Assembly: GCA_024277615.1 (NCBI GenBank)
Contig: JAJRUW010000075.1
Span: forward strand, 11,012 to 75,011
Source: Fidelibacterota bacterium
GTDB taxonomy: Bacteria > Fidelibacterota > Marinisomatia > SCGC-AAA003-L08 > JACNLC01
DNA: 64,000 nt
Direction of reading: 5' to 3'
The position numbers and the translations under genes are program-made. Shown in pieces: positions 35,275 through 62,796 of this stretch. Every line of letters starts with the position of its first letter. Within the stretch, counting starts at the first letter, position 1. Under the pieces are notes generated by a model. That model worked only from the letters and a program-made list of their open reading frames with translations, did not search any database and had not been told where the DNA came from.

Positions 35275-35520
35275 AAAAGAATTCCTCCTTGTTATTTGAA
35301 TATATACTTTATCATATTTTTGGTATCGTAACTATGGGGATAGTTACCGAATACAGTAATTTACAACAGCTATAGTCACAAATTCATTAATTGATTTATT
35401 CTCCACGAGAACTATTTGCGACCTAACTGTTTTGTTAACTCGTTAATTCTATCAGCATCACCTCCTTTTTCTATTAAACTGCTTAAGTTGATTGTTTCCT
35501 GTTTCTCAATATTTACAGAT

Positions 35521-36624: not shown

Positions 36625-36627
36625 GTG

Positions 36628-42273: not shown

Positions 42274-42274
42274 T

Positions 42275-46411: not shown

Positions 46412-46449
46412 AGAGCCGCCGTAATAAAGCTGTCGTATTCCGGTTTATG

Positions 46450-48165: not shown

Positions 48166-50215
48166 TGTTCCCCTCAGTCACAATTAGATGCAGTTCAAAA
48201 TTCAGATGGATACCCTCCTGGGGTTCGAGATTCACAGGCCAAACGGGCAATACGGCAGAGCTCTGATATATTCTCTCAAAACCGCTTTCAGACATAGAAA
48301 CCGTCTCCACCGGATAGCGCAATAGCTTTGTTTTCCCTTCAAATTTAAGCCGGCATTCAATTCCCTCCCACTCCGTGATTAATGAAAATATGGTGGCTAC
48401 GGTCATACCTGTGGAGTCTAAAAAAGGATTTTGCAGGTTTTTATCATCGATGCTGTAGTAACGATCAGGTGAATGTCCGCCCAGCATAGAAAAATTAAAT
48501 TCAGGGGCATAATAGCATTCGAGCCGGTCATCACTCAAATTGCGCAAATGAATTTTAAACCGGAGCCTTGAATCTTTGAGCCGTACCATTTTTTTTATTT
48601 CGACAAACTGTGAATTTACCTGCCCTGATCCGATCAGGACGATAGCATCGCCGTTTAGATTGGCTTTGTATTCTGCGGTCAAAAAATTTCCGCATTCAGT
48701 GTAATTATTTTTTCGCAGTTGATCGGCTTTAACCATAGATGAAAAAAAGTGGTCAATTAGCATCCAGCGGGGGTGTGCGTCATAAAACAAATAGTTTTCG
48801 AGATGGTCCTCTTTGGCAGTTATGCGGTCGTGGATTGAAGCGGTACCCGCTTCGCCCGTTTCCAGAGCATACAATTTTTCATGATAACTTTCTTCATGGC
48901 GGGCGAAAGTATTGACCAGATTGAATTTTTTCTTTTTTATATCAAGTTCGCGGATGGCTCCGCCGTGAGGCGTGAAGATGACCCGCAAATCCGGACTCGA
49001 CAGGATGATCTCCTTAGAACCGTCTTTGTCAATATCAACCTGCCTGGGGCCGGCAGCGGACAACAGATTTTCAGCTTCAATGATATTCTCAAAGATTGCA
49101 TTTCGTAAATGCGGTAAATACAAACCACCGAATACTCCGTGCCAGAAACCGCAATTGCATTGGCTGCGCCAGATGGCCTTGCGGGCGGCTTCGTTTTCCT
49201 GACCGTTCAGGAGTGTGGAAACATAATTGGCTCTTTTCATCATCCAATTGGATTCCTCATATTTTGTCAGGAAATCCCGCCAAGTTCCGCCTCTCAGGTA
49301 AGGCCTGATCTCATCAAAAGAGCCTTGTTGTTTTAAAGAATCTATGAGATGATTGTACTTTTTACCATGTGATATCGGCAGTGTCCATTCACCCATCTCA
49401 AAATAAGATGACGTGGGTAAATAGACCCTCCCCCGTGGCTTGTGGGCGTTGAAATATTGTGAAAAGGTCATTACTTCCAACCAGTCCCCTGCATCCGACA
49501 GATGTTTAAAAAACGAATTCAGCCAGTCGTCTTCACCAAAACAATGCTCACGGGTTCCGGGCCATACGCCGAATTTTTCCCCATCATCGGCCATCACTTT
49601 GACAGAAGCCGAATCCCGGGCGCTTTGACGTAAAAATTCAAGAGTCCGGTCCGGCTCGTCAAATGGAATGGCGTACCTCAATTTTTGTGAAATGGGAAAG
49701 ACGCCCAAAACATATCCCTGGTCTTCTGTCAGGTAATAACCGTCAAGTTCATCCAGCTGCCCGCGAGAGGCGGAAAAGTGCTGGTCATCAACGGCAATGT
49801 ATTTTATTCCGGCCCGGACGAGCGGTTTGACGAGTCCCGGCTCCCAGACCCGTTCCGTAAGCCAGAGTCCTTCCGGAGCTCTGCCGAAGCGTTTTTTTAT
49901 ATACGCATTCATCATCTCTATCTGACCCACTTTGTCCCTGTCGGAAATTGAAATGAGGATGGGTTCATAAAAGCCTGAAGAAAGGATTTCGCAGCGAGCA
50001 TCAGTAACCAGCGTCCCGACCCGGTCAATGTAATCGGGATGATGTTTTTCCAGCCATTCGATGAGAGGTCCGCTCACATGCAGGCTGAAATTGATCGCAC
50101 TGTATTTCGTGATCAAATCCAGAAAGGGCAAATAGGATTTCTGATAAGCTTCTTCAAAGATGTGGTCAAAATTCCCGACCGGTTGGTGATTATGAATTCC
50201 GAAAATAAATTTCAT
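48152..50215 (-). CDS. GH57 alpha-amylase/4-alpha-glucanotransferase family protein
   Basis: N-terminus MKFIFGIHNHQPVGNF, WLTERVWEP, and C-terminal beta-sandwich domains typical of the large GH57 enzymes. It overlaps the phosphorylase start by 14 nt. Confidence 0.85.
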   Translation of the reverse strand: MKFIFGIHNHQPVGNFDHIFEEAYQKSYLPFLDLITKYSAINFSLHVSGPLIEWLEKHHPDYIDRVGTLVTDARCEILSSGFYEPILISISDRDKVGQIEMMNAYIKKRFGRAPEGLWLTERVWEPGLVKPLVRAGIKYIAVDDQHFSASRGQLDELDGYYLTEDQGYVLGVFPISQKLRYAIPFDEPDRTLEFLRQSARDSASVKVMADDGEKFGVWPGTREHCFGEDDWLNSFFKHLSDAGDWLEVMTFSQYFNAHKPRGRVYLPTSSYFEMGEWTLPISHGKKYNHLIDSLKQQGSFDEIRPYLRGGTWRDFLTKYEESNWMMKRANYVSTLLNGQENEAARKAIWRSQCNCGFWHGVFGGLYLPHLRNAIFENIIEAENLLSAAGPRQVDIDKDGSKEIILSSPDLRVIFTPHGGAIRELDIKKKKFNLVNTFARHEESYHEKLYALETGEAGTASIHDRITAKEDHLENYLFYDAHPRWMLIDHFFSSMVKADQLRKNNYTECGNFLTAEYKANLNGDAIVLIGSGQVNSQFVEIKKMVRLKDSRLRFKIHLRNLSDDRLECYYAPEFNFSMLGGHSPDRYYSIDDKNLQNPFLDSTGMTVATIFSLITEWEGIECRLKFEGKTKLLRYPVETVSMSESGFERIYQSSAVLPVWPVNLEPQEGIHLNFELHLIVTEGNNGNT

Positions 50216-50303: not shown

Positions 50304-51347
50304 TTAAAAAGTCATCCGCAGTGTAAATTTGTGCAGATCTCCCAAATGCGTCATCAGTTCATAGGCATAATCAAAATAAAATATTCCGCCGTTTTTAATA
50401 GGGTAATTGATTCCTGCACCGAGCGTAAAGCGTTCTTCTCTGTCATTCATAAAAATGGCCTTTGAGCCGCCGCGAAAAACCAGTTGATTACCGAAAAAGC
50501 CAATTTGCGCGCCTGCATTGAGATATTCCGAGTTGTCATTGGGATGCAGAGCGTCCACAGCCCAGGTAACGGCAGCAATTTCGTGCACTGCGAAATCGCC
50601 TGATATGCCAACCCTGAGCAGCAGCGGCAGGTCGAAGTAATCAGTGTCAATCAGACCGTTGATGCTTTGGTTGTCCCCAGCCATATTCTGTGCCACATCA
50701 ACACGTACTAACAGGTCCTTCCCTGTCATTTTCATTTTGGGCCCGAAATTGGATATTGAAGTTCCCAGACGAAATCCGTAAGGTGTATCGAAGAGTGTTC
50801 CGATATCAATGGCCAGGCTGGAGGCCTTTTCATTCGAGATGTGTTCATTGATGTATTTGCCGTTGGCACCAATCGAAAAGCGGTCCGTCAGTTGCATTCC
50901 GTAGGAGATCCCAAGAGCATACTGACCGGCTCCGAACGTTTCTCCGGTGAATTCATCCGAACCATAAGCAGTTACATCCATTTCATTCATGGTGACGGCA
51001 GTTACATTCAGACCGAAAGCGGCACCGTTCTGCAGGGGTTGTACATAGCCAATATAGTTGAAAGATATATCGGCCACCCATTTGGTATGATTCACCAGAA
51101 ATTCCGGAGATTTGATGCGTGAGATACCGGCCGGATTCCAATACATCGCCGAGGCATCATCTGCAACAGCCGTAAAGGCTCCGCCCATACTGATGGCTTT
51201 GGAGCCGGCTCCGATGGAGAGGAATTTTGCCGCGGTGGTGCCGGTTTTTGTAACAGCAAAACCGGTACCGAGTATTGCCAGCGTTAGGAATGCCGGTCTG
51301 ATATATGTTTTTAAGTTTTCCATCAATCCTTCCATACTGTACCTCAT
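50304..51347 (-). CDS. PorV/PorQ-like outer-membrane beta-barrel
   Basis: Signal peptide followed by GTTAAKFLSIGAGSKAISMGGAFTAVADDASAMYWNPAGI, an alternating beta-strand body and a C-terminal F. The start codon overlaps the stop of the upstream CTD-encoding ORF (TAATG). Confidence 0.55.
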   Translation of the reverse strand: MRYSMEGLMENLKTYIRPAFLTLAILGTGFAVTKTGTTAAKFLSIGAGSKAISMGGAFTAVADDASAMYWNPAGISRIKSPEFLVNHTKWVADISFNYIGYVQPLQNGAAFGLNVTAVTMNEMDVTAYGSDEFTGETFGAGQYALGISYGMQLTDRFSIGANGKYINEHISNEKASSLAIDIGTLFDTPYGFRLGTSISNFGPKMKMTGKDLLVRVDVAQNMAGDNQSINGLIDTDYFDLPLLLRVGISGDFAVHEIAAVTWAVDALHPNDNSEYLNAGAQIGFFGNQLVFRGGSKAIFMNDREERFTLGAGINYPIKNGGIFYFDYAYELMTHLGDLHKFTLRMTF

Positions 51348-51652
51348 TATTTGACGATGGCAAATTTGCCAACATGTTCACCGACTCCCGGCGCTTCCAC
51401 ATGATAAATGTACACTCCGTAGGAAGCCGATAAATTATCTTTTGTCAGCAGGTCCCAGGACTCGGAGCCATTGTCGATCGTTGTATGATGATCAATTTTC
51501 TTCACCAGTTCGCCATTGATCGTAAAAATGCGGATTGTACAGTCGTCCGGTAATTTTCTAAATTGAATTTCACGGGGACCTCTGCCGGTGGAAAATGTAT
51601 TCTGTTTCTCCCAGGGCACGGCGGCATAATAGGGATTCGGCACAACATAGAT
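51347..51652 (-). CDS. detached C-terminal sorting-type domain (continues the 1221-aa ORF across an in-frame TAG)
   Basis: Directly after TAG (51653-51655) the same frame reads IYVVPNPYYAAVPWEKQ...IRIFTINGELVKKI...YIYHVEAP..GKFAIVK. This is a CTD-like beta-sandwich with no start context of its own (the ORF track uses an internal GTG at 51643). Confidence 0.7.
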   Translation of the reverse strand: MYVVPNPYYAAVPWEKQNTFSTGRGPREIQFRKLPDDCTIRIFTINGELVKKIDHHTTIDNGSESWDLLTKDNLSASYGVYIYHVEAPGVGEHVGKFAIVK

Positions 51653-54600
51653 CTATTTTAAGTCCCGTTTTGCGGCATCTTCGTCGATACTGGAAGGCTG
51701 CGTTGTGAATTCAAAAATATCGCGGCTTAGAAATGGTTTTTCCACGAACACATACGCTGTATCTCCGGGCTGTGGAAAGCGGATAACATGCTGCAGATCT
51801 CCTGCAGGCGGATTGACCATTCTGAAAGTCCAGCTGGGTGCGGGATTGCCGTCCGCATCGCTGTGATCCATAAAGACGATGGCATCATAATCCGTCTCTG
51901 TGTTACCGAAAATTCCATCACCACCTGAAGGCGTAAAATCACCGAATAGAAACGGTATATCAATCCAGTCCGCTGCATCATCGCCCGTTGAGCTAACCTG
52001 CTTCTGTACTTTAAAATTAACAGCCTGATTCTCGTAAAACCTCGAGGCACAATAAATTGATGAACCGCCCGGCCCGCAGGGATCTGAAAAGATGGGATTT
52101 GCGCAGAAACAGTCGGATTCAAACTCGTTGCTATCAGAGAATATAACCCGATAGTCCGCAGGCAAAGGCGTGCCGATAACATAGGGAATATCCAGATCGT
52201 ATTTACGAAGATCGAAAGGAACCAGACTGTCGTTAGACCAATAAGAACGATCTTCATTAAAGTAAAGAGCTTCGACATTGGTGAATTTCAGACGGAAGCC
52301 GTCGATGACATCAAAATCATCACCCTGGGGCAGCGGATTGGCATAGACTGAATCCCGCAAGGTGATGGTGATTGGCTGTCCCTGATCGTAGATCACTGAA
52401 TCGGTATCGAAATATTCCCATTCGGGTTTTACCAGCGTATCACCCGTTGTCAAATCAGTCAAAAACCAGTATTTGGTTGTGAGTGTGTCATATCCGACCG
52501 AGCCCTGATGATTTTCGAAGATCGTATCCGTAAAGCTGATCTGATAGCGGTGATAGGGTTGGATTCTCATCGGATCGATGATGGAATAATAGACCTCACC
52601 ACTGGATGTCCCCTGGACATGCTCAATCTCAATCCCCGAATCGGCCTCGATATATCCTGCCGAAGGAGGCGTTGGGACAACTTCGACAACATTGGGTCCC
52701 AGTTCCAGTACGCCGTTGATGGAGTTCACCCTAAGGCGCATGGGTGAATCGCTGGGTATGATCTCATTTGAAAGATCTCCTCCGTAGTCATAGGCCACCA
52801 CTGCATAATAGTAAGTTTGACCGTTTACTACATTTTCGTCAACATAAGAATGCTGCAGGCCCGTGTCACTCCCCAGCTGAAACTGGACTCCGTTCAGAGC
52901 GACCTCATGGAAGCCGGTGATGCCGTCAACAAGATCCCACTGGGCATCGACACCGCCCTGGGAATAGGGGGCGAAAAAAGTCGGATTGCCCTCACCATCC
53001 GTAATTTTGAGAGCATCTTTAAATTCAAAATCCGTAGCCCGGTAGATTTTATAGCCCTCAAAGTCCCGAAAAACTGCTCCGTCGGTAATCTTCTTCATAT
53101 AATTATCCTCTGAGTTTTCCGAGACGGTGTCCCAGTAAAGTGTAACCTTGCCGTCACCGGGCACGGCCGTCACATGTGGTGGAACGGGTGATTTTGCAAA
53201 TTGATAGTCGAAGTCATAAGTCGTCTGTGCCACAGCTTTATTGCGGATTGCATCTGCCTGGTCATTACCGAGGCAGACTGCCATGGCAATTCTTTCCGTC
53301 TGGCCGGCTTTCAGGGGGAAGAAACCCGAGGTGACAAAAAGATCATAATCGCCGGGCGGCTGGCCTCCGGGAGGTGGCTGCCAGAAATATCCCGGCGTCA
53401 TGTAGAAATTCCACAGGGACTGGTCACTGCCGGTGGGAATAGAGCCTGCCGGGTCATAGCCTACGGCCGTCAAACCCATTTGGTCGGATTCTGAAACATC
53501 GGTTTTATCTATGTCAGGCTCTCCCTGAAATCCGGTTCCGGAGCCCGAAGTCGGTTTCAGATCACCGGTACCTTCGCTCGGTCCGCCGGATCCGTCGCCA
53601 AAGAGCCCCACATCGTCTTCAGTAGTCCAGTCCCCGTCATTATCGATAAAATCGTCGCGGGATTCATCGATCATTTCATCAATGCCCTCGTCGATACCTT
53701 CGTCGATTGCCCCATCCAGGTCATTGTCTATGCCGTCTGCATAAGGTTTCCCAAGGTCATTTTCCTCCAGTTGATAGAGAATAATATTTGTACCGGGCAC
53801 CTTGTAGCGCAGATAGGGATCTGTTGCGGCCTCATCGATCATTTCCTGTGTAACTACCGGTCCGCCTACATCGGCTCCTGTGCCAAAGGGATACTCCAGA
53901 GCATAGGGTGCTTCGGGATCCGCATTGTTGTCGATATTATCTGCAAAGGCCAATCCCAGATCTTCGTCACCAACCATAATGAGATGAATAGTGCTGTCCT
54001 GAAGCTCGTCAGTTTCAGGTACGGGCGGCCAGCGAAACCAGTGGAAAAGAACCCCGTCAAGATTGATGAAGTCGCTGGCTGCATCGGCAATGATCTGCTC
54101 GGTAATGACTGCACAGCCCGGATCTGCGGCTTCGGGGCTGGAGTTATCGTTGTCAATTTTGTCCGCAAAGGAGACTCCCAATTGATTCCCGAAAGGTATA
54201 TGCGTCAGGTTTTCATCGATTAGCCCGTTCCGATTGTCATCGATACTATTGGCGAGGTCTTCTTCGCCGGGGTCTGCAACAATATAATCCAGGTCGCCGG
54301 GGCAGATTAGGTCTTCACCGCAGGCCAGCTCGCGACTGACAAAGGGGCCGGCTTCTTCTCCGTCACCATCATTATCAATGCGGTCAACGTTATTGCCGGG
54401 AGTTTCGATAAAGGAGGTTGCTGCCACACCGGTTGGCTCTCCATTGAAAGCGCTGTTACCGGTACAGTCTCCGGGTATGCAGTTGTCCATGGACCAGGCT
54501 ACATCATTCATCAGATCAAAATCCGGTGTGTCATCCATTGTATCTCCGTCACCTCCAACCATATCTGCCAGCCAAAGAGAAAAGGAGACTTTATCGATAT

Positions 54601-55318
54601 CTTTTGTACCATCATTTTTAATATCGTGAAGAATGAAAACCACATCTTCGATGAGGATCTGTTTCCACTCCATTACCCTGACGCCGGTGAGAAAACCGGC
54701 ACCCTGGCGGGAATAGTCGGTCGTATCGGGGATATAGGTGTATCCGTCGCGAAAGTTGCGGTCATCGGACACCTTATAATAAATCTCCTGCTCAGCACTG
54801 AATTGATTCTTTCCGAAATAACCGTTCCACGATCCTGACCAGCCGGGATCACTGGAATCTTCCATTTTATCAGGCCAGGTTTCAGGCCAGCTGTCAAGAT
54901 CGTCACTAATAGCAATTTTATCTGAATTTGGATTCAGATAGCCCGGTACCGGCTCCCAGGATTTTGAACTGCCGCTTTGGTCTTCCCTAAAGGTAATTGT
55001 GACCAGTGGTTTATAAACGCCCTCTTCCATGAGAACTTCTCCGCCAACGCTCAGAGCCGTCATGGCAACATACATACGGCCTGAGTTAACCGGCCATTCG
55101 TAGGGGATTTCGCCTACATTGGCGCCGGTTCTGCCGGTTATACCAAAATTGAAAACTGAGGTTCTGACTTTATTGACATCCTCATTTGTGGTGCGCCTGT
55201 AATTAGGATCTCCCCGCTCATCTGATGGAACATGTTCGCCGGCTTCGTACTGAGCAAAAACGAGCGACGCTCCTGTAAAAAGAATTGCAAAAGCTTTTTT
55301 CATTGTCTTTCCTACCAT
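51653..55318 (-). CDS. large secreted protein (1221 aa) with acidic IDNDGDG-type (thrombospondin-type-3/dockerin-like Ca-binding) motifs, encoded directly downstream of the TonB-dependent receptor
   Basis: Signal peptide MKKAFAILFTGASLVFAQ (the start may be ATG 55303). Motifs DRIDNDGDGE, SIDDNRNGLIDEN, ADNIDNNADPE and ADGIDNDLDGAIDEGIDEGIDEMIDESRDDFIDNDGD. No catalytic family recognised. Confidence 0.8.
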   Translation of the reverse strand: MVGKTMKKAFAILFTGASLVFAQYEAGEHVPSDERGDPNYRRTTNEDVNKVRTSVFNFGITGRTGANVGEIPYEWPVNSGRMYVAMTALSVGGEVLMEEGVYKPLVTITFREDQSGSSKSWEPVPGYLNPNSDKIAISDDLDSWPETWPDKMEDSSDPGWSGSWNGYFGKNQFSAEQEIYYKVSDDRNFRDGYTYIPDTTDYSRQGAGFLTGVRVMEWKQILIEDVVFILHDIKNDGTKDIDKVSFSLWLADMVGGDGDTMDDTPDFDLMNDVAWSMDNCIPGDCTGNSAFNGEPTGVAATSFIETPGNNVDRIDNDGDGEEAGPFVSRELACGEDLICPGDLDYIVADPGEEDLANSIDDNRNGLIDENLTHIPFGNQLGVSFADKIDNDNSSPEAADPGCAVITEQIIADAASDFINLDGVLFHWFRWPPVPETDELQDSTIHLIMVGDEDLGLAFADNIDNNADPEAPYALEYPFGTGADVGGPVVTQEMIDEAATDPYLRYKVPGTNIILYQLEENDLGKPYADGIDNDLDGAIDEGIDEGIDEMIDESRDDFIDNDGDWTTEDDVGLFGDGSGGPSEGTGDLKPTSGSGTGFQGEPDIDKTDVSESDQMGLTAVGYDPAGSIPTGSDQSLWNFYMTPGYFWQPPPGGQPPGDYDLFVTSGFFPLKAGQTERIAMAVCLGNDQADAIRNKAVAQTTYDFDYQFAKSPVPPHVTAVPGDGKVTLYWDTVSENSEDNYMKKITDGAVFRDFEGYKIYRATDFEFKDALKITDGEGNPTFFAPYSQGGVDAQWDLVDGITGFHEVALNGVQFQLGSDTGLQHSYVDENVVNGQTYYYAVVAYDYGGDLSNEIIPSDSPMRLRVNSINGVLELGPNVVEVVPTPPSAGYIEADSGIEIEHVQGTSSGEVYYSIIDPMRIQPYHRYQISFTDTIFENHQGSVGYDTLTTKYWFLTDLTTGDTLVKPEWEYFDTDSVIYDQGQPITITLRDSVYANPLPQGDDFDVIDGFRLKFTNVEALYFNEDRSYWSNDSLVPFDLRKYDLDIPYVIGTPLPADYRVIFSDSNEFESDCFCANPIFSDPCGPGGSSIYCASRFYENQAVNFKVQKQVSSTGDDAADWIDIPFLFGDFTPSGGDGIFGNTETDYDAIVFMDHSDADGNPAPSWTFRMVNPPAGDLQHVIRFPQPGDTAYVFVEKPFLSRDIFEFTTQPSSIDEDAAKRDLK

Positions 55319-58300
55319 GATAATTCCAGTCCGATTTGTATTTCACGCGGCGGTGAATACCACTCCGGGTGATTAAAATAATCTTCGATTGTATTTGGTC
55401 TTAAAGGTTGAGGTGCAGCAGCTTCCAAAGACAAGGCGGAGGCCTCCTCGATGGTCCTGTTAGCCCTGCCTGTGTCCGTCCAGATATTGATTTCATTTCT
55501 TTTGTCGAAGAGGTTGCGAATATTCAAATAGACCCGGCCACCGGCGAAATTACCGACCCTGATCTGCTGGATCAGTTTAAGGTCGAAATTCAGTGTGGGC
55601 TGTTTACGCCGGCTATTGTTAGGCAGATCGTTGACAATGTTCTGGCCTGAGTTTGAGTAAGTGACAATCGTCGGTGTGTATGGATAACCGCTGCCAAACT
55701 GCATCAGGAGATCCGCTCCAAATCCGCCCTGGCTGAAGTATAATTCGCCGTTTAGTGTATGCCGCTGATCCCAGTCCAGAGGCAGGATAAACCTCGTCGG
55801 TTCGGGAACGCCTTCCCCGCCTGTGAGAGAAGCATATTCCTGCCCGGGATCGGAATTAGAACCTTCCGCTACCTGAAAAGTGTAATCCAGATGCCAGCTG
55901 TAATGATCACTGAAGCGTTTGTCCACAGCAGCGATGATACCCCTCACATTTGAATAATCTTTATTTACATAAGTATAGTAAGTCTGTCCGCTGATACCCA
56001 GATCAATGGGTACTCCGGTAGATACCCAGTCCCTTACATCACGATAGTATCCAGTCACTTCCAGCTTAAGAGAATTGGTAAGTTCCTGCTGTAAACCCAG
56101 TTCGTAGCTCTGGGTACGTTGAGGTTTCAATTCCGGATTACCGAAAATTCCCGAGATTGAGGCTGTTTCATTAATAACATAGCCGGGGTTTTTATAAAGC
56201 AGCTCAAACTGAGGTATCTGGAAAAAGTAACCGTAACTGAAATGAATGACACCTGTCTCCGATATTGGATAAGCGATACCCAGCCGGGGACTGATTTGCG
56301 AAGTGGTTTTTGTCTTGCGCCACCAGCCCCGTTTAGTTTTCAGAGTCTCTTTATTTGGATAATCACCGAAATCCCCGTACATATACCAGGTTGTATCCAG
56401 ACCGTCAATGCTGGTAACATAGTACGATGTATCTCCCCAATCGATATTCAACAAATCGTTTAATCTTCCTTCGACCAGCAGTGAATCCAGACGGGGGTCC
56501 ATGGGGTTATAAAAAAACGGATCGTGAATATTTACCGGCATGAAACTGTTGGGGTCGAAATAGTCGTACCGGACTCCCAGATTGACGATCATATCACCGT
56601 ATTCGATTTTATCCTGCATGTAGGCTGAAAACTCCCGGGGTTCATTGACATAATAATGACCGAAAAGAACGAAGGGGCCGGCAAAATGCAATTTGGCCAC
56701 CCATGAGGGAATATTCCCGGAAAGCGGATCAAGACCACCCTGAACCAGCAGATTTGAGACATCAATGAGTTCAGGTACGAGCGGGTCATAGAGCTGATCA
56801 TTGGTCAGGTCGATGGGCGTAGCATCCTCCATCTGAAGTTTGTGCTGCTTAAAGTCAAGTCCCAATTTGACCTGATTGTATTTATTCATCTGGCTGGTCA
56901 GATCTATCTTGAACTGGATTGTATTTGTCTCTCTGCGAAAATGATTACCGTCCACCCCCCAGCGACCGAAGGAGTAATTGGGATTATAACGGGCGTAATT
57001 TTCTCCGTATTCGGCCCTGATATAATTGGGAACTTCTTCGTCGGAATGTGCCCAGAACAGGCTGTCCGGGGTGACATAGCGCGGATCATAAGGATCTTCA
57101 TATAGATAGGATTTAAAAACTTTTTTAAACTGCGATAGATTCACTTCTATAAAAGTCCTTGAGGAAAATGAGTGGGAGAGATTCAAACCTTTAAAGTCGC
57201 CGATATCATAATCGGTTTTCCGGCCGTCCTGAGCCATTTGGCGTGCATGATCGTAATTCTGTTTCCGCTGGAAAGAATAGATAAAATTAAATTTTAATTT
57301 AGTTTTGGGTGAGAACTTCAAAGTGAGCTTGTTCTGAGTTGACCACTTTTCCAGCCAGTTCATACCCTTGTAGTAGGGCGTTCTCAAAGGCTCTGCCGGG
57401 TCCCACTGTCCGTTACCAGTATCGTTAAAAGGTTCACCCCGGTCATAGACACCGTTTTCGTTTTGATCTTCAAAACTTTCACCCTCGTCCCAGATGCCGT
57501 TCCCCCGGTCAGCGAAAGTTTCTCCTGCATCCCAATTTGGCTTTGTTATGCTTTCATCCCAGACGAACTTTTCACCACTGTCCCATTTACGATTTCCGAC
57601 TATATCGGTGAAGGGCTCACCCTGATCCCAGATTCCGTTGGCGTTTTGGTCTTCATAAGGATCTCCTTCATCCCAGCGACCATTCCCCCTGTCGAGAAAC
57701 TGACCGTTTATCACCCATTTCTGGTTCTGTTCATCAAAATAGTTCTCGGCAAAATCGCGGAATCGATTGCCATTTTTATCCGTAAACAGGGTGTCTCCGT
57801 ACATGGTGAAAGTGTTAAGACCATTCAGCCAGCCGTCAGACCTGAAATAGCGTCCTGAACTGTAAAAAGTGATTTTGTTTTTCCAGAGTGGACCTGATAG
57901 ACTGCCCTCAAAATCAATGTCATTGACCGGATCATAGGAATTTAAATCCCGGTAAATGGGATCAAAAGAAAAATGATCTCCGGAGTAGTAGCTCAGGCCG
58001 CCGTCGAAGCGATTTCCACCGTCTTTAGTGACCATATTGATAATTCCGGACATGGCCTTTCCGTATTCGGCATTGAAGGTTCCGCTGATGACCTGGAGTT
58101 CCTGAATATTGTTATTTTCAATATTGACCGAGAGCCCGCCGTTAAAGACATCCGTCATAGAGACACCGTCAACCATGTAAACAACCTCGCTGGTACGTCC
58201 TCCCCGGATATGTATGCCGCCTCCGGCATCCTGGGTTACGCCGCCCTGGAGTTTAATCACGTCCCCCACATCCGTAATGGGCATGACATCCAGCTGTTTG

Positions 58301-58704
58301 GAAGAAATTCGGGACTCTGAATTCGTCACATCAAACTGAATTACTTTTGCAGCTGCATTGACTGTTACCTCGGCGCCTTCCAGCGCCTGGACATTTAATT
58401 TAAAATTCTGGTGGGTGGTCTTGTCAATATTAATGACCACATCCGTAACGGTTGCAATCTGATAACCGATCATCATAGCCCTGATGCGATAGGAACCCGG
58501 AGGCAGATTCATTATTAAATATTCACCCTGAGCATCAGTAGCTGTGCCGATATCGCTGTCTTCGACCATAATATTGCAGCCCACCAGTGCCTCGCCGGTC
58601 CTGCCGTCGGTAACCTTTCCTACCAGCTTTCCGGTTGTCCCCCCGATGAGCAGATTAAAGATTATGACTCCTATAGCCAGCTTAATAATTCTTATAATTC
58701 CCAT
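55312..58704 (-). CDS. TonB-dependent receptor (CarboxypepD_reg + plug + 22-strand-type barrel) with a repeat insertion
   Basis: GKLVGKVTDGRTGEALVGCNIMV (CarboxypepD_reg), plug region ..VIKLQGGVTQD..IHIRGGRTSEVVYMVDG.., and a C-terminal ..REIQIGLELSW. Confidence 0.9.
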   Translation of the reverse strand: MGIIRIIKLAIGVIIFNLLIGGTTGKLVGKVTDGRTGEALVGCNIMVEDSDIGTATDAQGEYLIMNLPPGSYRIRAMMIGYQIATVTDVVINIDKTTHQNFKLNVQALEGAEVTVNAAAKVIQFDVTNSESRISSKQLDVMPITDVGDVIKLQGGVTQDAGGGIHIRGGRTSEVVYMVDGVSMTDVFNGGLSVNIENNNIQELQVISGTFNAEYGKAMSGIINMVTKDGGNRFDGGLSYYSGDHFSFDPIYRDLNSYDPVNDIDFEGSLSGPLWKNKITFYSSGRYFRSDGWLNGLNTFTMYGDTLFTDKNGNRFRDFAENYFDEQNQKWVINGQFLDRGNGRWDEGDPYEDQNANGIWDQGEPFTDIVGNRKWDSGEKFVWDESITKPNWDAGETFADRGNGIWDEGESFEDQNENGVYDRGEPFNDTGNGQWDPAEPLRTPYYKGMNWLEKWSTQNKLTLKFSPKTKLKFNFIYSFQRKQNYDHARQMAQDGRKTDYDIGDFKGLNLSHSFSSRTFIEVNLSQFKKVFKSYLYEDPYDPRYVTPDSLFWAHSDEEVPNYIRAEYGENYARYNPNYSFGRWGVDGNHFRRETNTIQFKIDLTSQMNKYNQVKLGLDFKQHKLQMEDATPIDLTNDQLYDPLVPELIDVSNLLVQGGLDPLSGNIPSWVAKLHFAGPFVLFGHYYVNEPREFSAYMQDKIEYGDMIVNLGVRYDYFDPNSFMPVNIHDPFFYNPMDPRLDSLLVEGRLNDLLNIDWGDTSYYVTSIDGLDTTWYMYGDFGDYPNKETLKTKRGWWRKTKTTSQISPRLGIAYPISETGVIHFSYGYFFQIPQFELLYKNPGYVINETASISGIFGNPELKPQRTQSYELGLQQELTNSLKLEVTGYYRDVRDWVSTGVPIDLGISGQTYYTYVNKDYSNVRGIIAAVDKRFSDHYSWHLDYTFQVAEGSNSDPGQEYASLTGGEGVPEPTRFILPLDWDQRHTLNGELYFSQGGFGADLLMQFGSGYPYTPTIVTYSNSGQNIVNDLPNNSRRKQPTLNFDLKLIQQIRVGNFAGGRVYLNIRNLFDKRNEINIWTDTGRANRTIEEASALSLEAAAPQPLRPNTIEDYFNHPEWYSPPREIQIGLELSW
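57390..57700 (-). repeat. coding repeats of an ~11-12-aa NGxWDxGEPFxD motif inside the receptor
   Basis: RGNGRWDEGDPYEDQNANGIWDQGEPFTDIVGNRKWDSGEKFVWDESITKPNWDAGETFADRGNGIWDEGESFEDQNENGVYDRGEPFNDTGNGQWDPAEP. Confidence 0.8.
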
Positions 58705-58756: not shown

Positions 58757-60034
58757 CTACATTATGAATGATGCTAATAATTCTTTATTGACCTCTATTG
58801 CCGTGTGGTCCTTCAAATTGTTAATGAAATCGATGTATAATTTTCTTTTCACCACTTCACTGGCCGTATCTCCCTGTGCCGCCTGGATGCGGGAGACCAG
58901 CAGACTCAGTATACGCCGTGATTTACGCTCCTGAAGATTTGCCACAAAATCAGGAGTCTTCAACCATTGCGATGCTTCAATGCGATTGAATATTTCCTCT
59001 CTGACTGAAAGCCCGACGAGCATTTCGTGAAGATCATCCGGAGTCTTAATTTGACGGCGCTGTGTATCCCGTGTGAGGCGCAGTTTTTCAGCGAGTTTGG
59101 CAAAATCCCAATCAAAATATTTTGTTTTCAAATGGACGTTACGCAAATTCCGATCTCTGAAAACCGACAGGTTGCGCTTTGCAAATATGGCCTCCAGGTT
59201 CTCAAACAAAAGCTGCAAGTCCTTATCACTGATCTGCAGGTCAAGTGTGCCGGCCACTTCGTCAGTGTAGGCTTTCACCAGCTTCTGCAACTTTCGGTTT
59301 TTTACTTTCGTCTCGAAATCGGTTTTATGAAGCTGATAATCCTGTTCGGTGATAAAGGGCTCATATTCACGGTCAATCACCTGCAGGATGCTGTATCCCC
59401 AGGCAGTTTTAACGGGATCTGATATTTGTCCGTCATCCAGAGAATAGGCCGCATCTTCAAAAGCCGGATCCATCTCATCATAAGTAAAATAGCCTAGATC
59501 ACCACCTGAATTCGCCAGGGCTGAATCCTGAAAGGTTTCCCTGGCAAGAGCTTCAAATGTTTCCCCCTTTTTCAGACGGTTCCTCAAGGTCCGGGCTTCT
59601 TCCATGGAACGGGCGTACAGGTGCCTGGCATGGATTTTTATTTTCGATCGACGAAAGGCTTCCCGAATATCCGCATCAGCAACTTTATAAGGATCAGCTA
59701 ATTCCTTTTGGTAGAACTGATTCAGAATGATTTGGCCGGTGGCAGCGGAGACAGATTCTTTGATTTCCGGTAATTCCGAAAATCCGGAAGTATCTGCATA
59801 AGTTGTGAGAATCATTTTCTCAATCTCGTTTTTCACAAAAACATTCCTGCTCATGAGATTATCCTCAACATGTGTAAAAGTCAAAAAATCGCTGTAATCG
59901 GTTTTAAAACTTTCAAGGTCAAGCGTCTGGTCTCCCACACGAGCGAGGTAATCCTGTTGTTGGTCAGGCAGATGTGAACAGCCTAACAAGAGGGCCAAAG
60001 CCATTCCTGCCATACCGGTTTTACTGCTGCGCAT
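58757..60034 (-). CDS. parvulin-type peptidyl-prolyl isomerase lipoprotein (SurA/PpiD-like)
   Basis: Lipoprotein signal MRSSKTGMAGMALALLLGC at ATG 60034 (the longer ORF to 60178 overlaps the upstream gene). PpiC domain IHARHLY...SGGDLGYFTYDEMDPAFEDAAYSL..GQISDPVKTAWGYSILQV. Confidence 0.8.
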   Translation of the reverse strand: MRSSKTGMAGMALALLLGCSHLPDQQQDYLARVGDQTLDLESFKTDYSDFLTFTHVEDNLMSRNVFVKNEIEKMILTTYADTSGFSELPEIKESVSAATGQIILNQFYQKELADPYKVADADIREAFRRSKIKIHARHLYARSMEEARTLRNRLKKGETFEALARETFQDSALANSGGDLGYFTYDEMDPAFEDAAYSLDDGQISDPVKTAWGYSILQVIDREYEPFITEQDYQLHKTDFETKVKNRKLQKLVKAYTDEVAGTLDLQISDKDLQLLFENLEAIFAKRNLSVFRDRNLRNVHLKTKYFDWDFAKLAEKLRLTRDTQRRQIKTPDDLHEMLVGLSVREEIFNRIEASQWLKTPDFVANLQERKSRRILSLLVSRIQAAQGDTASEVVKRKLYIDFINNLKDHTAIEVNKELLASFIM

Positions 60035-61886
60035 AGATAATAATTCCTTTAGCCGGTATGATAGATTCGTTCTCGTTAACGGCAGGATTTGCGAGAATAC
60101 GCTGCCAGCTCTGTTTTGCATTCCGGGTATTTTCCAGCAGCTGCGAAATTTCAAAGGGTTCAGCCGTTTTCGAGGCATTAAAAACGCAGATGAGGGCTTC
60201 GTCAGGCAATTCCCTTTTGAAGGCGAATATCAGGCGTCGATCATCTGCCAGTAAAACCTCATAGCTGCCACGACGCAGGGACTCATGTTCTCTGCGTAAG
60301 CGGATCATCTGCCGGTAAAAGGATAGCAGATCATTATCCACATTAACGGAGTCCCGGGGTCTTGGCAAACCGAAAGGATGGTGCGTCTCATCTTCATAAG
60401 TCAAATCCGCCCATACCATGGGTTTGCGTTCATCAGGATCGTCCGCGCCCCACATACCGACCTCGTCACCGTAATAAATATAGGGCGCTCCGGGGAATGT
60501 AAACTGAAAAGCCAGACCAATTTTCTGTTTGCGTCTCTCGTCTGCATTGGGTTTGCGTACCAGGTAATCTTTTTCATATTGCACATTATTGGCATGGTCG
60601 ATCCACCTGTCGGGATTCACGCAGGCTGAGGCAAAACGTTCATTGTCGTGACTGCCGATCAGATTTTGAATTTGAAGCATTGTGGGATAACCGTAATCTG
60701 AAATTATTCCATCCAGGAGACTGCCGAAAGCTGTGGCGTTGATCTGTTTTTGCTCAAAGAGAAAAAACTTGTAGATTGCATCACCAAAACGATAATTCAT
60801 CACCGCATCGAAGGCATCGCCCTGCAGCCACGGTGCTGCATTGAACATAATATTGTGCTCGTAATCTTTCCACCATACTTCTCCGGTGAGGTAACTGTCG
60901 GGGTTGATCGCAGTGGTCCAGCTACGGAACTTCCGCCAGAAATTCAGGGGTACCATATCGGCTACATCCAGGCGCCAGCCATCGATACCATCAGAAGGAT
61001 CGCCATCCCCGTTTGGATCCATCCAGCGTCTGACCACGGCATGAATATGCTCTTCGATTGGTGGTATCAGTCCCGCCTTATCTTCCTTCAGTTCGGCGAG
61101 GTCCTTAATACCGAACCAGCCTTCATAGGAAAACTCGTTTTCGGCCGTCTCCGGATCATCCCAGCTGGTAATCGTAAACCAGTCTTTGTAGAGACTTTCA
61201 GGACCATTTTTGCGTACATCCTCCAGGGCCCAGAACGGAATACCCACATGGTTAAAAACACCGTCGATGATGATGTGCATATCCCGCTTATGGACTTCCC
61301 TGACCAGTTTTAAAAAGAGTTTATCGGCCGATGTCCAGGTCCAGGTGTCGGGGTCGCCGGGGTTTTCAGTTTTCCAGAGGGCGGCATCACCGGCCGGATC
61401 AGGGCCAAAATTATTGTCGATGTGATGATAATATACAGCACCGTATTTGTGAGATGAAGGCGATTCAAAAACAGGGTTCAGGTAAATAGCGTTGATACCA
61501 AGTGACACCAGATAATCCAGTTCATCAATGATGCCCTGCAGATCCCCCCCATACCGCCTTAACTGGGCATTATAGTAAAAGCCTTGGCCATTTGCAGCCT
61601 CCCAGGGCTGCAGCTTATACCAGTCATCAGTCCAGGGAGTGATCTGCCAATAGGTTTGAACATCATAAGGCCAGGTTCCTGCCAGGGTTTCAATGGTGGG
61701 ATCGTTGGTGGTATCGCCATTCCTGAAGCGTTCAGGGAATATCTGATACCACACAGCGTCCCCGGCCCATACCGGCCCGGCAGTGGTTTTTTTATTTTTA
61801 GCATGTTGGAGGAAACAGCCCGCCAGAAGCAGCACCAGTAATAAAAAACCGGTTTTGTTAAAATGTTTAATTTGGCTGTTTAGCAT
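60021..61886 (-). CDS. GH13 lipoprotein, neopullulanase/cyclomaltodextrinase-like alpha-amylase family
   Basis: Lipobox at ATG 61886 (LLLAGC). Motifs WYQIFPERFRNGD, GINAIYLNPVFESPSSHKYG, DGVFNHVG, DGWRLDVA, GEVW and GSHDNERF. Confidence 0.9.
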   Translation of the reverse strand: MLNSQIKHFNKTGFLLLVLLLAGCFLQHAKNKKTTAGPVWAGDAVWYQIFPERFRNGDTTNDPTIETLAGTWPYDVQTYWQITPWTDDWYKLQPWEAANGQGFYYNAQLRRYGGDLQGIIDELDYLVSLGINAIYLNPVFESPSSHKYGAVYYHHIDNNFGPDPAGDAALWKTENPGDPDTWTWTSADKLFLKLVREVHKRDMHIIIDGVFNHVGIPFWALEDVRKNGPESLYKDWFTITSWDDPETAENEFSYEGWFGIKDLAELKEDKAGLIPPIEEHIHAVVRRWMDPNGDGDPSDGIDGWRLDVADMVPLNFWRKFRSWTTAINPDSYLTGEVWWKDYEHNIMFNAAPWLQGDAFDAVMNYRFGDAIYKFFLFEQKQINATAFGSLLDGIISDYGYPTMLQIQNLIGSHDNERFASACVNPDRWIDHANNVQYEKDYLVRKPNADERRKQKIGLAFQFTFPGAPYIYYGDEVGMWGADDPDERKPMVWADLTYEDETHHPFGLPRPRDSVNVDNDLLSFYRQMIRLRREHESLRRGSYEVLLADDRRLIFAFKRELPDEALICVFNASKTAEPFEISQLLENTRNAKQSWQRILANPAVNENESIIPAKGIIIYAQQ

Positions 61887-61908
61887 GGTGTTAAAATTAG
61901 TAACTCTG

Positions 61909-62796
61909 TTATGAGTTACCAACCCCTTTTTTTGCCAGATCCGCTGCTCCGAGTTTTGCGGACAACTCTTTTTTCCGGCTCTCGGAAATCGGAGTCGAAA
62001 AGTGGGCATAAGCCGGTGAATGTGCTTTGAGCTCTTCTTTAAGAGCCTCTACGAAAAAGCCGTATGCAGCTGAAATCCCGCCGCCAATAACTACCCTGTG
62101 AGGATCAAAGATATTGACAATATGCGAAATAAACAGACCAACTCTGCTCCCGTAGATTTCCCAGATCGCCAGAGCTGCCGCATTTCCGTCGGCCGCGAGG
62201 GTGCAGAGTTCTGCAGGAGACAGCCTGTGGCCAAATTTCAGGTAACTCTGCTCTTCAAGAAAACGGATGGAAATCCCTTCTTCCCAGCGCCCCCAATTTA
62301 CAGGTGAGATGCCATACTCGGCAGCCATACCATGTGCGCCTGTGTAGCAGGCACCATCCATAACAACCCCCAGACCGGTACCGGTACCTAAGGTAATACC
62401 CACCAGAATCCCCTGATTCGAACCCAACTGAAGGAACTCTCCCATAGCGAACAGATTGGCATCATTTTCTATCATAACCGGGACTTCAAGGTATTCTTTA
62501 AGGCGTTGTGCTACGGGGTAATTTTGAAACAATTTCAAATTGGGAGTCTCTAGTATTGTCCCGGCTTTTGCATCCAGCGGCCCGGGACAGGCAAGCCCTA
62601 CTCCTCCGAGCGTAATCAAATCTTTACCGGCGAGTGTATTGATCTGGTTCCCGATCCCTAGTATGAGCTCATCTCCGCTGTTAAAGTCATTGATGAGGCC
62701 CTTAGGTGACGAACGCAGTAAATTCAAATTCGCATCAAACAATGAACTGGAGAAGGTCGTCCCTCCAATATCGGTGCCGATAAAGACGGACTTCAC
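61909..62796 (-). CDS. ROK-family sugar kinase (glucokinase-like)
   Basis: IGTDIGGTTF ATP motif and ..GLACPGPLD...ENDANLFAMGE... ROK signature. It overlaps the upstream GH13 stop by 4 nt. Confidence 0.85.
   Translation of the reverse strand: MKSVFIGTDIGGTTFSSSLFDANLNLLRSSPKGLINDFNSGDELILGIGNQINTLAGKDLITLGGVGLACPGPLDAKAGTILETPNLKLFQNYPVAQRLKEYLEVPVMIENDANLFAMGEFLQLGSNQGILVGITLGTGTGLGVVMDGACYTGAHGMAAEYGISPVNWGRWEEGISIRFLEEQSYLKFGHRLSPAELCTLAADGNAAALAIWEIYGSRVGLFISHIVNIFDPHRVVIGGGISAAYGFFVEALKEELKAHSPAYAHFSTPISESRKKELSAKLGAADLAKKGVGNS

Follow-up and report, generated by a model that had tools for sequence, protein, structure and literature searches.

A TonB-dependent receptor, a large secreted protein and a PorV-family barrel as a possible SusD-independent glycan-capture module in Marinimicrobia

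In a marine Marinimicrobia (Fidelibacterota, SAR406) bacterium, a TonB-dependent transporter (TBDT) is encoded among genes for α-glucan breakdown. All open reading frames (ORFs) of at least 277 aa between 31.4 and 64 kb of the locus were scanned, and none matches a SusD-like Pfam family; where a canonical susC/susD pair would have susD, i.e., 3′ of the transporter gene, the locus carries an unmodelled protein of 1221 + 101 aa, followed by an outer-membrane β-barrel. A preliminary description proposed that these three genes form a triad. All three are real, while two details of that description, a C-terminal domain (CTD) and a TAATG overlap that it ascribed to the 1221-aa ORF, belong elsewhere, as discussed below. 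The window, i.e., the whole stretch of DNA that was analysed, is 64,000 nucleotides long; coordinates refer to it, and all features given with coordinates lie on the minus strand.

The α-glucan locus around the triad spans roughly 33 kb. Its upstream block (60021..63914) encodes a cyclomaltodextrinase-like GH13 (60021-62009), a ROK kinase (61909-62796) and a second GH13 (62793-63914). On the other side, 3′ of the barrel, a block for catabolism and import (43260..50215) consists of a GH57 (48152-50215), an α-glucan phosphorylase (46450-48165), a MalE-MalF fusion (44177-46411) and MalG (43260-44180), and the order from GH57 to MalG is identical in the related loci L001-L005 and L061. The distal part (31465..43108) encodes a small outer-membrane barrel (42275-43108), a β-propeller protein (41182-42273), an FG-GAP/ASPIC protein (39516-41192), a CBM53-GH13-dockerin protein (36628-39525), MalK (35521-36624) and an LTD-CBM20-dockerin protein with a canonical Por_Secre_tail CTD (31465-35274); this CBM20/CTD protein comes directly 3′ of the barrel in most Marinimicrobia relatives. 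Carbohydrate-active enzymes and an importer are thus clustered as in a polysaccharide utilisation locus (PUL), with three to four GH13 proteins, GH57, the phosphorylase, CBM20 and CBM53 proteins, MalEFGK and the ROK kinase, and GH13, GH57, phosphorylase, MalEFGK and CBM20/CBM53 genes surround the triad in relatives as they do in the window. Elsewhere in the window a few genes look disrupted, namely an msrB-msrA pair with a frameshift and a fragmented small TBDT.

A fourth gene belongs to this setting. A PPIC-type peptidyl-prolyl isomerase (PPIase), SurA/PrsA-like (58757..60178; 473-aa ORF; Pfam Rotamase, 4.4e-19), is a conserved first gene of the module; almost every orthologous locus with sufficient flank has it directly 5′ of the receptor, and most have a GH13 gene 5′ of it in turn. 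In locus L090, a distant triad is likewise flanked by a Rotamase gene. In the reading that we prefer, these genes make up the outer-membrane core of an α-glucan (starch, glycogen, maltodextrin) utilisation locus. [quoted passage not shown]

The receptor (55312..58704) is a TBDT of 1130 aa with a signal peptide and three Pfam domains, all above their cutoffs: CarboxypepD_reg (PF13620, residues 27-103), plug (PF07715, 125-220) and the TonB_dep_Rec barrel (PF00593, 564-1065). The CarboxypepD_reg domain, which spans residues 27-115, resembles the N-terminal extension (NTE) of SusC, and a TonB-box-like EVTVNA was read from the sequence near residue 112. A profile built from 12 orthologues matches the CirA plug (1e-16) as well as the NTE of the SusC homologue 9hfj (9hfj_A, 4.7e-5), so that the layout known from SusC/RagA, i.e., N-terminal extension, plug and large barrel, is present. 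The SusC/RagA model TIGR04056 does not match the window receptor at E ≤ 0.01; it matches 8 of the 12 orthologues at E ≤ 1e-5 (best 2.8e-24), values that are E-values and not the curated cutoff. By these models, the window receptor carries a SusC-like N-terminal domain, yet stands outside the SusC family.

The gene of the large protein (ORF of 1221 aa, 51653-55318) overlaps the receptor TAG by 7 nt. Its true start is likely Met6 (55303), from which translation would begin 8 nt past that TAG; the record in public collections is the corresponding 1216-aa form. The start and signal peptide (55253..55318), read from the sequence as MVGKTMKKAFAILFTGASLVFA followed by QY, hold no lipobox cysteine. 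Acidic motifs are found at residues 315 (DRIDNDGDGE), 360 (IDDNRNGLIDEN) and 531 (DGIDNDLDGAIDEGIDEGIDEMIDE), and aspartate makes up 16.5% of residues 311-620. Neither Pfam, NCBIfam nor the PDB yielded a match, and no enzyme family appeared at any threshold. Homologues with 50-96% identity occur in hundreds of genomes, which means that these genes are not chance ORFs. On the receptor reading frame, on its overlapping or adjoining junction with the next gene, and on a secreted, acidic product with no recognisable catalytic domain, the preliminary description was accurate.

Several segments can be distinguished in this protein. A conserved, Trp-rich N-terminal domain (residues 23-320, 54359..55252), delimited by invariant alignment columns, is shared with P0270, a distant member from a mannoside locus (36% identity, BLASTP); its AlphaFold2 (AF2) confidence is low, and a fold search returned only non-significant supersandwich matches. 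It is followed by a variable cassette (residues 321-526, 53741..54358) between the DRIDNDGDG and DGIDNDLDG motifs, for which pLDDT is 62-91 over most of its part of the model of the N-terminal half. Insertions in this cassette are ortholog-specific and confined to the α-glucan orthologues, orthologue-paralogue identity is at its lowest here (0.24-0.28), and in P0270, which shares the N-terminal domain and 700 aa at the C-terminus, the cassette is missing or replaced. Judged from such patterns, the cassette is a candidate for the substrate-specific region. The acidic core, IDEGIDEGIDEMIDESRDDFIDNDGDW ... GEPDIDKTDVSESDQMGL, and a middle domain (residues 527-710, 53189..53740) carry motifs that are unchanged across orthologues and paralogues, and the core is putatively Ca-binding; many members of the superfamily are common only from this core to the C-terminus. 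The remainder (residues 711-1221, 51656..53188) is modelled as FnIII-like and then further β-sandwich domains (AF2 pLDDT 83.8, pTM 0.76), with tandem FnIII arrays as the best Foldseek matches of the C-terminal half (E = 3.7e-4); the model suggests a stalk-like array, and neither it nor Foldseek revealed a catalytic fold in these residues. The N-terminal half has a pLDDT of 60 and no significant structural match, and a half modelled this poorly may contain an unrecognised catalytic fold.

An alternative reading takes the protein for an enzyme of novel fold, such as an endo-acting α-glucanase or another depolymerase, displayed on the PorV-like barrel beside the transporter. The N-terminal 700 aa, which have no recognisable fold, contain many invariant Asp, Glu and His residues, and the supersandwich domains that were matched non-significantly are those of glycoside phosphorylases and lyases. 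However, secreted GH13 and CBM proteins are already encoded in the locus, no catalytic family was detected, and an N-terminal domain common to α-glucan and mannoside loci is easier to understand as a scaffold than as a single catalytic specificity. We consider an enzyme unlikely.

The segment that follows the 1221-aa ORF bears on how the large protein may be held at the membrane. The ORF ends at an in-frame TAG (51653..51655, read 51655-51653), and the same frame continues for 101 codons (51350..51652) with a divergent, T9SS-CTD-like domain (IYVVPNPYY...ASYGVYIYHV...GKFAIVK). The preliminary description had placed a sorting-type CTD within the 1221-aa ORF and had fused the stop of that ORF to the barrel start; the domain sits past the TAG, at 51652-51350, and the TAATG (51349-51345) consists of the TAA of the CTD segment overlapping the ATG of the barrel. 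In relatives, sense codons stand in place of the TAG (GAG in L001, CAA in L002) and the protein is continuous (1310-1322 aa); the CTD is in frame with the large protein in 77 of 80. It is also the most conserved segment (mean column identity 72% vs 54% for the whole protein).

Assignment of this domain to the T9SS signals is by similarity below curated cutoffs. For CTDs of type A the models are PF18962/TIGR04183, for type B PF13585/TIGR04131. The window CTD scores 13.8 (FlgD_ig), 12.7 (CHU_C) and 12.4 bits (Por_Secre_tail), each against a cutoff of 27; the best T9SS-CTD E-value among 13 orthologues is 0.0056, and the paralogue P0175 reaches 17.8 bits with CHU_C, all of them below cutoff. All sub-threshold matches fall either in families of T9SS signals (FlgD_ig, CHU_C, Por_Secre_tail) or on the CTDs that PorZ and PorU retain, and these last two, both weak, are the only matches in NCBIfam. 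Motifs that can be read in the sequence are VVPNPY, YGVYIYH and GKFAIVK. Three window proteins carry Por_Secre_tail or FlgD_ig above cutoff, which implies that the organism has a T9SS, and hhalign aligned the divergent CTD to these three canonical CTDs with 73% probability (E = 3e-5, 61 columns).

The third gene (50304..51347) encodes an outer-membrane β-barrel of 347 aa that matches the PorV/PorQ family model NF033709 over its full length (1-326 of 326) with 185.8 bits (cutoff 90) and Pfam PorV (PF19572) with 44.5 bits (cutoff 27); the nearest solved structure is Flavobacterium johnsoniae PorV (6h3i_F, E = 1e-8). It stays below the equivalog cutoffs for PorV (NF033710, 69.4 vs 250), PorQ (NF033711, 80.3 vs 220) and PorV2 (NF052325, 71.1 vs 325), and so is, by profile score, a separate subfamily within PorV/PorQ. 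Among other barrel families, the PorP/SprF models of Pfam and NCBIfam gave no match at E ≤ 0.01, and the BamG model NF053685 gave a faint one (23 bits vs a cutoff of 250). A FadL/OmpP1/TodX porin was considered and rejected: PF03349 (Toluene_X) scores 21.9 bits, below its cutoff of 29.7, over residues 53-105 only (E = 7.3e-5).

The three genes also occur together elsewhere. The synteny set comprised 80 related loci from four phyla of the FCB (Fibrobacterota-Chlorobiota-Bacteroidota) group outside Bacteroidota, i.e., Marinimicrobia, Calditrichota, Ignavibacteria (including a Melioribacter roseus MAG) and Zhuqueibacterota. In 66 of 66 loci the receptor lies directly upstream of the large gene, and in 75 of 76 the barrel lies directly downstream; the distance from the stop of the large gene to the barrel ATG is mostly −4 to +11 nt, with −4 nt (ATGA) the most common. 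No SusD was found in the triad loci of these four phyla. The superfamily of the large protein counts 8179 clusters (50% identity) at E ≤ 1e-3, and paralogous or distant members are likewise accompanied by receptor and barrel in L083 (two tandem triads), L085, L089 and L090. Locus L081 keeps the triad as well, and one paralogous module in it has receptor and large protein with no barrel of its own. Both the PorV/PorQ-like nature of the barrel and the recurrence of the triad, as proposed in the preliminary description, are thereby borne out. Loci for other substrates reuse the triad with a different variable cassette; that of L086/L087 is flanked by GH38, GH130, MFS and ROK genes (a mannoside locus). 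Several paralogous triads have no adjoining CAZymes, so that glycans need not be the substrate throughout the wider family.

These data also bear on the possibility that the barrel serves as a FadL-type diffusion channel or as a general transporter accessory, with the CTD a mere Ig-like domain, such that adjacency would reflect co-regulation of outer-membrane proteins rather than a cargo and its anchor. The failure of the CTD to pass any T9SS-CTD model, the weak Toluene_X match, the barrel-free module of L081 and the non-T9SS scaffold roles possible for FadL-like barrels, e.g., BamG (PMC12578637), are compatible with this. But the PorV-family score far exceeds that for FadL, in most of the 76 loci the barrel start overlaps or directly adjoins the CTD stop, and across the superfamily no part of the protein is more conserved than the CTD, so that we regard this reading as quite unlikely.

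The tight coupling of the receptor and large genes could also be understood if the TonB-dependent protein exported the large protein, as Myxococcus Oar does with PopC; the triad would then be a device for secretion and display rather than uptake. Receptors of paralogous triads do have CarboxypepD_reg together with OMP_b-brl_4/OMP_b-brl_3 signatures. This combination is typical of large Oar-like TBDTs. One study (PMC6434023) reportedly describes TBDT-dependent secretion. However, its own CTD-like signal and a PorV-family partner already provide the large protein with a T9SS route, and the maltodextrin ABC importer of the inner membrane and the cytoplasmic catabolic genes alongside fit uptake, which makes export very unlikely.

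Other genes of the window use TAG as a normal stop; the in-frame TAG of the large gene is either a nonsense mutation, i.e., a very recent loss-of-function allele, or an assembly error. The body of the protein and the CTD are each 96% identical to L001 at the protein level despite ~18% divergence of the DNA, which means that the CTD was under purifying selection until very recently. That the triad of this genome is a cluster of decaying pseudogenes that no longer functions, to which this TAG and the disrupted-looking genes elsewhere in the window might point, is therefore improbable, since the TAG is a single base away from a sense codon (GAG in L001), this protein identity is maintained, and the neighbouring genes of the locus are all intact.

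In our preferred reading, to which we assign a probability of about 0.5, the large protein is a T9SS-delivered surface capture protein, held by its uncleaved CTD on its own PorV-like barrel and feeding the receptor. It would be exported by Sec and carried across the outer membrane by the type IX system, where it would be neither cleaved nor released; by analogy with PorZ on PorQ and with type B cargo on PorP/SprF, the conserved CTD would stay bound to the cognate barrel. The β-sandwich stalk would hold a head, probably stabilised by Ca2+, above the membrane. This head may capture α-glucan chains, or oligosaccharides freed by the co-encoded secreted CBM/GH13 proteins, and hand them to the adjoining TBDT, after which periplasmic and cytoplasmic GH13, GH57, the phosphorylase and the MalEFGK transporter would complete breakdown and import.

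Parts of this arrangement have precedents. The preliminary description knew of no characterised example, but dedicated pairs of barrel and cargo have been characterised in type IX secretion (PMC10202324, PMC9143113, PMC12618676). In the PorZ-PorQ and PorU-PorV pairs, an uncleaved CTD is retained on the barrel (PMC10202324). As in these Porphyromonas gingivalis proteins, the proposed holder in the triad is a PorV/PorQ-family barrel acting through an uncleaved C-terminal β-sandwich domain. In contrast, PorQ/Z and PorV/U serve the secretion machine as housekeeping components and have no part in nutrient uptake, their genes are not coupled to a TBDT, and the triad barrel falls below the PorV, PorQ and PorV2 equivalog cutoffs. 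Cargo with a type B CTD shows genetic linkage to its cognate PorP/SprF shuttle (SprB-SprF, PG1035-PorP and the specialised shuttles of F. johnsoniae), and such a barrel is thought to extract and anchor its own cargo, with many paralogous pairs per genome (PMC9143113, PMC12618676). Here too the cargo gene adjoins that of a dedicated barrel; however, the triad barrel is of the PorV/PorQ family, its CTD has a layout closer to type A/FlgD_ig, with a 20-residue insertion, and the known pairs comprise adhesins and gliding proteins rather than partners of a transporter. In the Bacteroidota BAM complex, the FadL/PorV-like, 14-stranded barrel of BamG-BamH docks to another barrel and forms a platform for extracellular proteins (PMC12578637), so that an architecture of this kind is physically possible, although BamG matches the triad barrel only faintly, BamH is a lipoprotein and the function is outer-membrane protein biogenesis.

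The triad also resembles the Sus-like systems of Bacteroidota (SusC/SusD with SusE/F/G; PULs, “utilisomes”) in having an NTE-bearing TBDT directly 5′ of the gene of a large surface partner, non-catalytic in our proposal, in its place among substrate-specific CAZymes and inner-membrane importers, and in the reuse of the module with different partners for different glycans. Unlike these systems, the triad locus has no SusD-family gene and its transporter is not a TIGR04056 member; the partner, a Sec/CTD-type protein of ~1320 aa whose family is unmodelled and which is paired with a PorV-family barrel of its own, is not a lipoprotein; and the hosts belong to Marinimicrobia, Calditrichota, Ignavibacteria and Zhuqueibacterota rather than to Bacteroidota. 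The idea of a SusD-independent TBDT partner is well supported by this genomic context, with the reservation that in the window the gene is interrupted by the TAG before the CTD. It is about an even bet that the large protein functionally fills the role of SusD and SusE/F without being a lipoprotein. We found no paper describing a system of receptor, large protein and PorV-like barrel, and the proposed arrangement brings two known themes together in a novel fashion.

More tentatively, and with the balance slightly against it, the triad, often together with the PPIase, may represent a distinct and widespread class of TonB-dependent polymer uptake in non-Bacteroidota FCB phyla, in which a Ca-dependent, modular, T9SS-delivered protein permanently docked on its own PorV-family barrel takes the SusD/SGBP role and an exchangeable cassette sets the specificity. 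In that case it would rank among the main routes by which SAR406/Marinimicrobia, Calditrichota, Ignavibacteria and KSB1/Zhuqueibacterota capture polysaccharides, and would link the T9SS directly to nutrient import.

A GH13 protein (60021-62009) and a PPIC-type prolyl isomerase (PPIase, 58757-60178), both identified from the ORF list and from Pfam and NCBIfam matches, are encoded on the (-) strand upstream of three genes of the same orientation: a TonB-dependent transporter (TBDT, here called the receptor) of 1130 aa with CarboxypepD_reg, Plug and barrel domains (55312-58704), a 1221-aa ORF (51653-55318) that belongs to what we refer to as the big protein, and a 347-aa barrel ORF of the PorV/PorQ family (50304-51347). 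The assignment of the barrel as PorV/PorQ-like in the preliminary description was borne out: it scores 185.8 bits with the PorV/PorQ family model NF033709 (cutoff 90) and 44.5 bits with Pfam PorV (cutoff 27), F. johnsoniae PorV (6h3i_F) is the closest structure in the PDB (E = 1e-8), and its scores lie far under the NCBIfam equivalog cutoffs of PorV, PorQ and PorV2. A FadL-type porin was rejected, because the Toluene_X/FadL score of 21.9 bits is below the family threshold of 29.7. Comparison of NCBIfam models also led us to reject the receptor as a member of the SusC family (TIGR04056), and a phmmer search with the receptor against PDB sequences gave zero matches.

The big protein has no match in Pfam (E ≤ 5), in NCBIfam or among PDB sequences (phmmer and profile searches), nor does a profile of 12 of its homologues. 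It carries the acidic motifs reported earlier, and Asp makes up 16.5% of residues 311-620. The C-terminal sorting-type domain (CTD) is not, as had been proposed, part of the 1221-aa ORF, which terminates ahead of it at a TAG codon (51655-51653). Beyond this codon the reading frame is open for 101 further codons (51350-51652; IYVVPNPYY...GKFAIVK). The TAATG junction with the barrel ATG is real, but is made by the TAA of this segment rather than by the stop of the 1221-aa ORF.

At least 786 relatives of the big protein were found in a word-indexed database, the named ones being from Marinimicrobia, Fidelibacterota or the "FCB group". A scan of one genome per species yielded 464 matching stretches, of which the best 80 loci were taken; these belong to Marinimicrobia, Calditrichota, Ignavibacteria (including a Melioribacter roseus MAG, L080) and Zhuqueibacterota, and the few labelled Bacteroidota are suspected to be mis-binned. 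Synteny was counted by phmmer, using the window proteins against all ORFs of the 80 loci. The receptor is found directly upstream of the big gene in every locus having enough flank (66/66), the barrel directly downstream in 75 of 76, and the CTD within the big-protein ORF in 77 of 80; the PPIase is located upstream of the receptor almost everywhere. The big-gene stop and the barrel ATG usually overlap (ATGA) or are 1-11 nt apart. Most loci also harbor alpha-glucan genes, i.e., GH13 upstream and either a CBM20 protein or GH57, phosphorylase and MalEFG downstream.

Three of the loci contain a second pair of big protein and barrel upstream. With one of these paralogues as query, at least 3181 proteins were retrieved, none with a Pfam match; they measure about 1120-1170 aa and belong to KSB1, Calditrichota and Fidelibacterota. 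When 1.84 billion cluster representatives were searched with a profile, there were 8179 matches at E ≤ 1e-3 (4481 at ≤ 1e-10 and 1315 at ≤ 1e-30), i.e., a superfamily of about 8,000 clusters at 50% identity, in which many matches share only the conserved acidic core and the part composed of FnIII, beta-sandwich and CTD. The loci of paralogous and distant members are varied: L089 has one triad of receptor, big protein and barrel, in L085 the triad is followed by a CBM4_9/CTD protein, and L090 encodes GntR, receptor, big protein, barrel, PPIase, an FG-GAP/CTD protein and a second receptor. Paralogous units are found in tandem on single contigs in L083 (two triads, 1-14441) and L081 (1-13396), where a triad is accompanied by a receptor and big protein without a barrel, followed by a MEDS/PAS histidine kinase; barrels may thus sometimes be shared. 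A PPIC-type rotamase stands beside the triad both in distant members (L090, 12237-13898) and in the alpha-glucan orthologues, which suggests that the module has its own periplasmic chaperone.

In L086/L087 the triad is flanked by GH38 alpha-mannosidases, GH130, an MFS transporter and a ROK kinase; the module is general and not confined to starch use. With the big protein of this mannoside locus (P0270), two stretches of the window protein can be aligned, residues 6-320 (36% identity) and those from 527 to the end (29%), with no alignment across residues 321-526, where the alpha-glucan orthologues carry specific insertions. A common scaffold bearing a substrate-specific cassette would give such a pattern.

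We propose that Sec exports the big protein and a type IX secretion system (T9SS) then moves it across the outer membrane, that its CTD would remain uncleaved and hold it on its own PorV-family barrel, and that a stalk would display a probably Ca-stabilised head, which would capture alpha-glucan and hand it to the TBDT; the conserved PPIase may chaperone assembly. We assign this chain as a whole a probability of about one half. Confidence is much higher for the genomic facts, of which we regard as established the gene identities, the near-invariant order of PPIase, receptor, big protein with CTD and barrel, the embedding of the module in substrate-specific catabolic loci, and the exchangeable cassette. 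Retention of cargo on a barrel has precedents in PorZ-PorQ, in PorU-PorV and in the PorP/SprF shuttles that keep their cognate type B cargo (PMC9143113, PMC12618676), and BamG provides one for a FadL-like barrel that serves as a docking platform beside another barrel (PMC12578637).

The putative stalk is rendered with confidence in an AF2 model of residues 700-1221 (pLDDT 83.8, pTM 0.76) as a chain of FnIII-like and other beta-sandwich domains, for which a fold search against the PDB returned only generic tandem FnIII arrays as best matches. For residues 23-715 the model is of low confidence (pLDDT 60); Foldseek against the PDB gave nothing better than E = 0.5, and a faint, non-significant likeness to galactose-mutarotase-like supersandwich domains is not relied on. 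The big protein could be a novel enzyme instead of a binding protein, and a head without a recognised fold would leave room for one; in agreement with the preliminary description, no enzyme family is found by sequence or profile, and we consider an enzyme unlikely.

The CTD is the most conserved part of the big protein, which is more in keeping with a specific protein interface than with a signal that is discarded. It misses the curated T9SS-CTD thresholds, and all sub-threshold matches are to FlgD_ig, CHU_C, Por_Secre_tail, or the CTDs of PorZ or PorU. The latter two proteins retain their CTDs, bound to PorQ and PorV, respectively (PMC10202324). Profile comparison with the three canonical CTDs of the window gave a probability of 73%, and the domain displays PNP and GxY motifs, a terminal Lys and a 20-residue insertion behind the PNP motif. 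Three window proteins with canonical T9SS CTDs make the presence of a T9SS in this organism very probable. The barrel might have nothing to do with the CTD, and the failure of the CTD to reach the curated T9SS-CTD thresholds is compatible with such a separation; set beside the nearly constant adjacency of the two genes, we find this slightly less likely than an enzyme. Oar-like export via the TBDT is compatible with the adjacency of receptor and big gene; given also a CTD and a barrel kept in nearly all loci, it is less likely again.

In the nearest relatives the big protein is continuous (1310-1322 aa), and the codon at the TAG position is GAG in L001 and CAA in L002. Because the receptor, PPIase, MalG and further window genes normally end at TAG, recoding is excluded, and programmed read-through is also ruled out by the sense codons (GAG, CAA and others) at the site in relatives. 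Protein identity between the window and L001 is 96% in body and CTD alike, with a DNA identity of 81.6%, which indicates that purifying selection acted on the CTD up to very recent times. The TAG is a nonsense allele of very recent origin or else an assembly error. The public genome record calls the big gene as a 1216-aa product starting at Met6, and two further window genes appear disrupted, which is compatible with either reading. The big gene is also broken into at least two ORFs in other MAGs (L016, L031, L032 and L033); such frequent interruption of a long gene in metagenome assemblies favors the assembly-error reading for stops of this kind. Simple gene decay in this genome, to which the TAG might point, is as improbable as Oar-like export, given the selection seen on the CTD.

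An msrB-msrA (SelR and PMSR) fusion gene (26990-27915, (-)) appears to be split by a frameshift into two overlapping ORFs, 27367-27915 (SelR positions 1-77) and 26990-27577 (SelR 89-115 and PMSR), and is either another disrupted gene or the result of base errors in the assembly. A small TonB-dependent receptor (7523-9597, (+)) seems fragmented into 7523-7918, 7915-8919 (partial Plug and partial barrel), 9188-9415 and 9337-9597, i.e., a pseudogene or sequencing errors.

The triad of the window resides in an alpha-glucan locus of about 33 kb. A second GH13 and a ROK kinase are found upstream; downstream are GH57, alpha-glucan phosphorylase, a MalE-MalF fusion, MalG, a small barrel, a beta-propeller and an FG-GAP/ASPIC protein, followed farther on by a CBM53-GH13-dockerin protein, MalK and an LTD-CBM20-dockerin protein with a canonical Por_Secre_tail CTD. 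Among the scanned locus ORFs none has a SusD-family domain, and promoter and terminator scans of 43.0-62.9 kb gave sites no more numerous than in shuffled sequence. The MalE-MalF fusion (44177-46411, (-)) combines maltose-binding protein and MalF permease in one 744-aa ORF (SBP_bac_8 and BPD_transp_1); it is kept in Marinimicrobia L001-L005, L030, L035, L041, L045 and L061, and the two are separate genes in Calditrichota L065 and L075. Dockerin_1 matches on three secreted proteins (12696-16187, 31465-35274 and 36628-39525, (-)), one of which is the CBM53-GH13 amylase without a T9SS CTD, hint at dockerin-type surface tethering of enzymes on this Marinimicrobia cell. No cohesin partner was identified for the window dockerins, the fold search with the C-terminal half of the big protein giving no cohesin-like match, and a dockerin/cohesin-style "amylosome" on the big protein is speculation. 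A 2352-aa protein (16197-23255, (-)) with Laminin_G_3 domains, Big_5 and a FlgD_ig/Por_Secre_tail CTD has as its neighbour a Peptidase_S74 (endosialidase chaperone) protein of 519 aa (23311-24870), and the two resemble a giant cluster of adhesin-like T9SS cargo.

The triad locus works similarly to a Sus-type locus, except that there is no SusD, the receptor falls outside TIGR04056 and its partner is not a lipoprotein. T9SS attachment pairs likewise use a PorV-family barrel together with a CTD-like domain, but at equivalog level the barrel is none of PorV, PorQ and PorP/SprF. To our knowledge, no T9SS barrel-cargo pair is coupled to a transporter, and no published description of the arrangement was found in the full-text open-access literature. 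We rate it as one that joins two known kinds of system and is built on a large, wholly uncharacterised protein family.

In the dark ocean, Marinimicrobia (SAR406) rank with the most abundant bacteria, and sediments and subsurface habitats commonly harbor Ignavibacteria, Calditrichota and KSB1. Because these loci contain no SusD-family gene, polymer capture by these bacteria is unexplained by the SusC/SusD model of Bacteroidota, a gap that would be closed by a partner of TonB-dependent transporters that is conserved and modular. Direct testing is feasible in cultured carriers or their near relatives, i.e., Melioribacter roseus and Caldithrix abyssi, the genus of which is represented by L075 and which grows on starch (PMC5317091). 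The combination of transporter, big protein and barrel would be a simple genomic marker for substrate-specific uptake loci in uncultured FCB lineages. Characterisation of the big-protein family, which has neither a Pfam model nor a solved relative, would give a function to many "hypothetical proteins" of ocean and sediment metagenomes and would show PorV-family barrels at work in nutrient acquisition as well as in secretion housekeeping.
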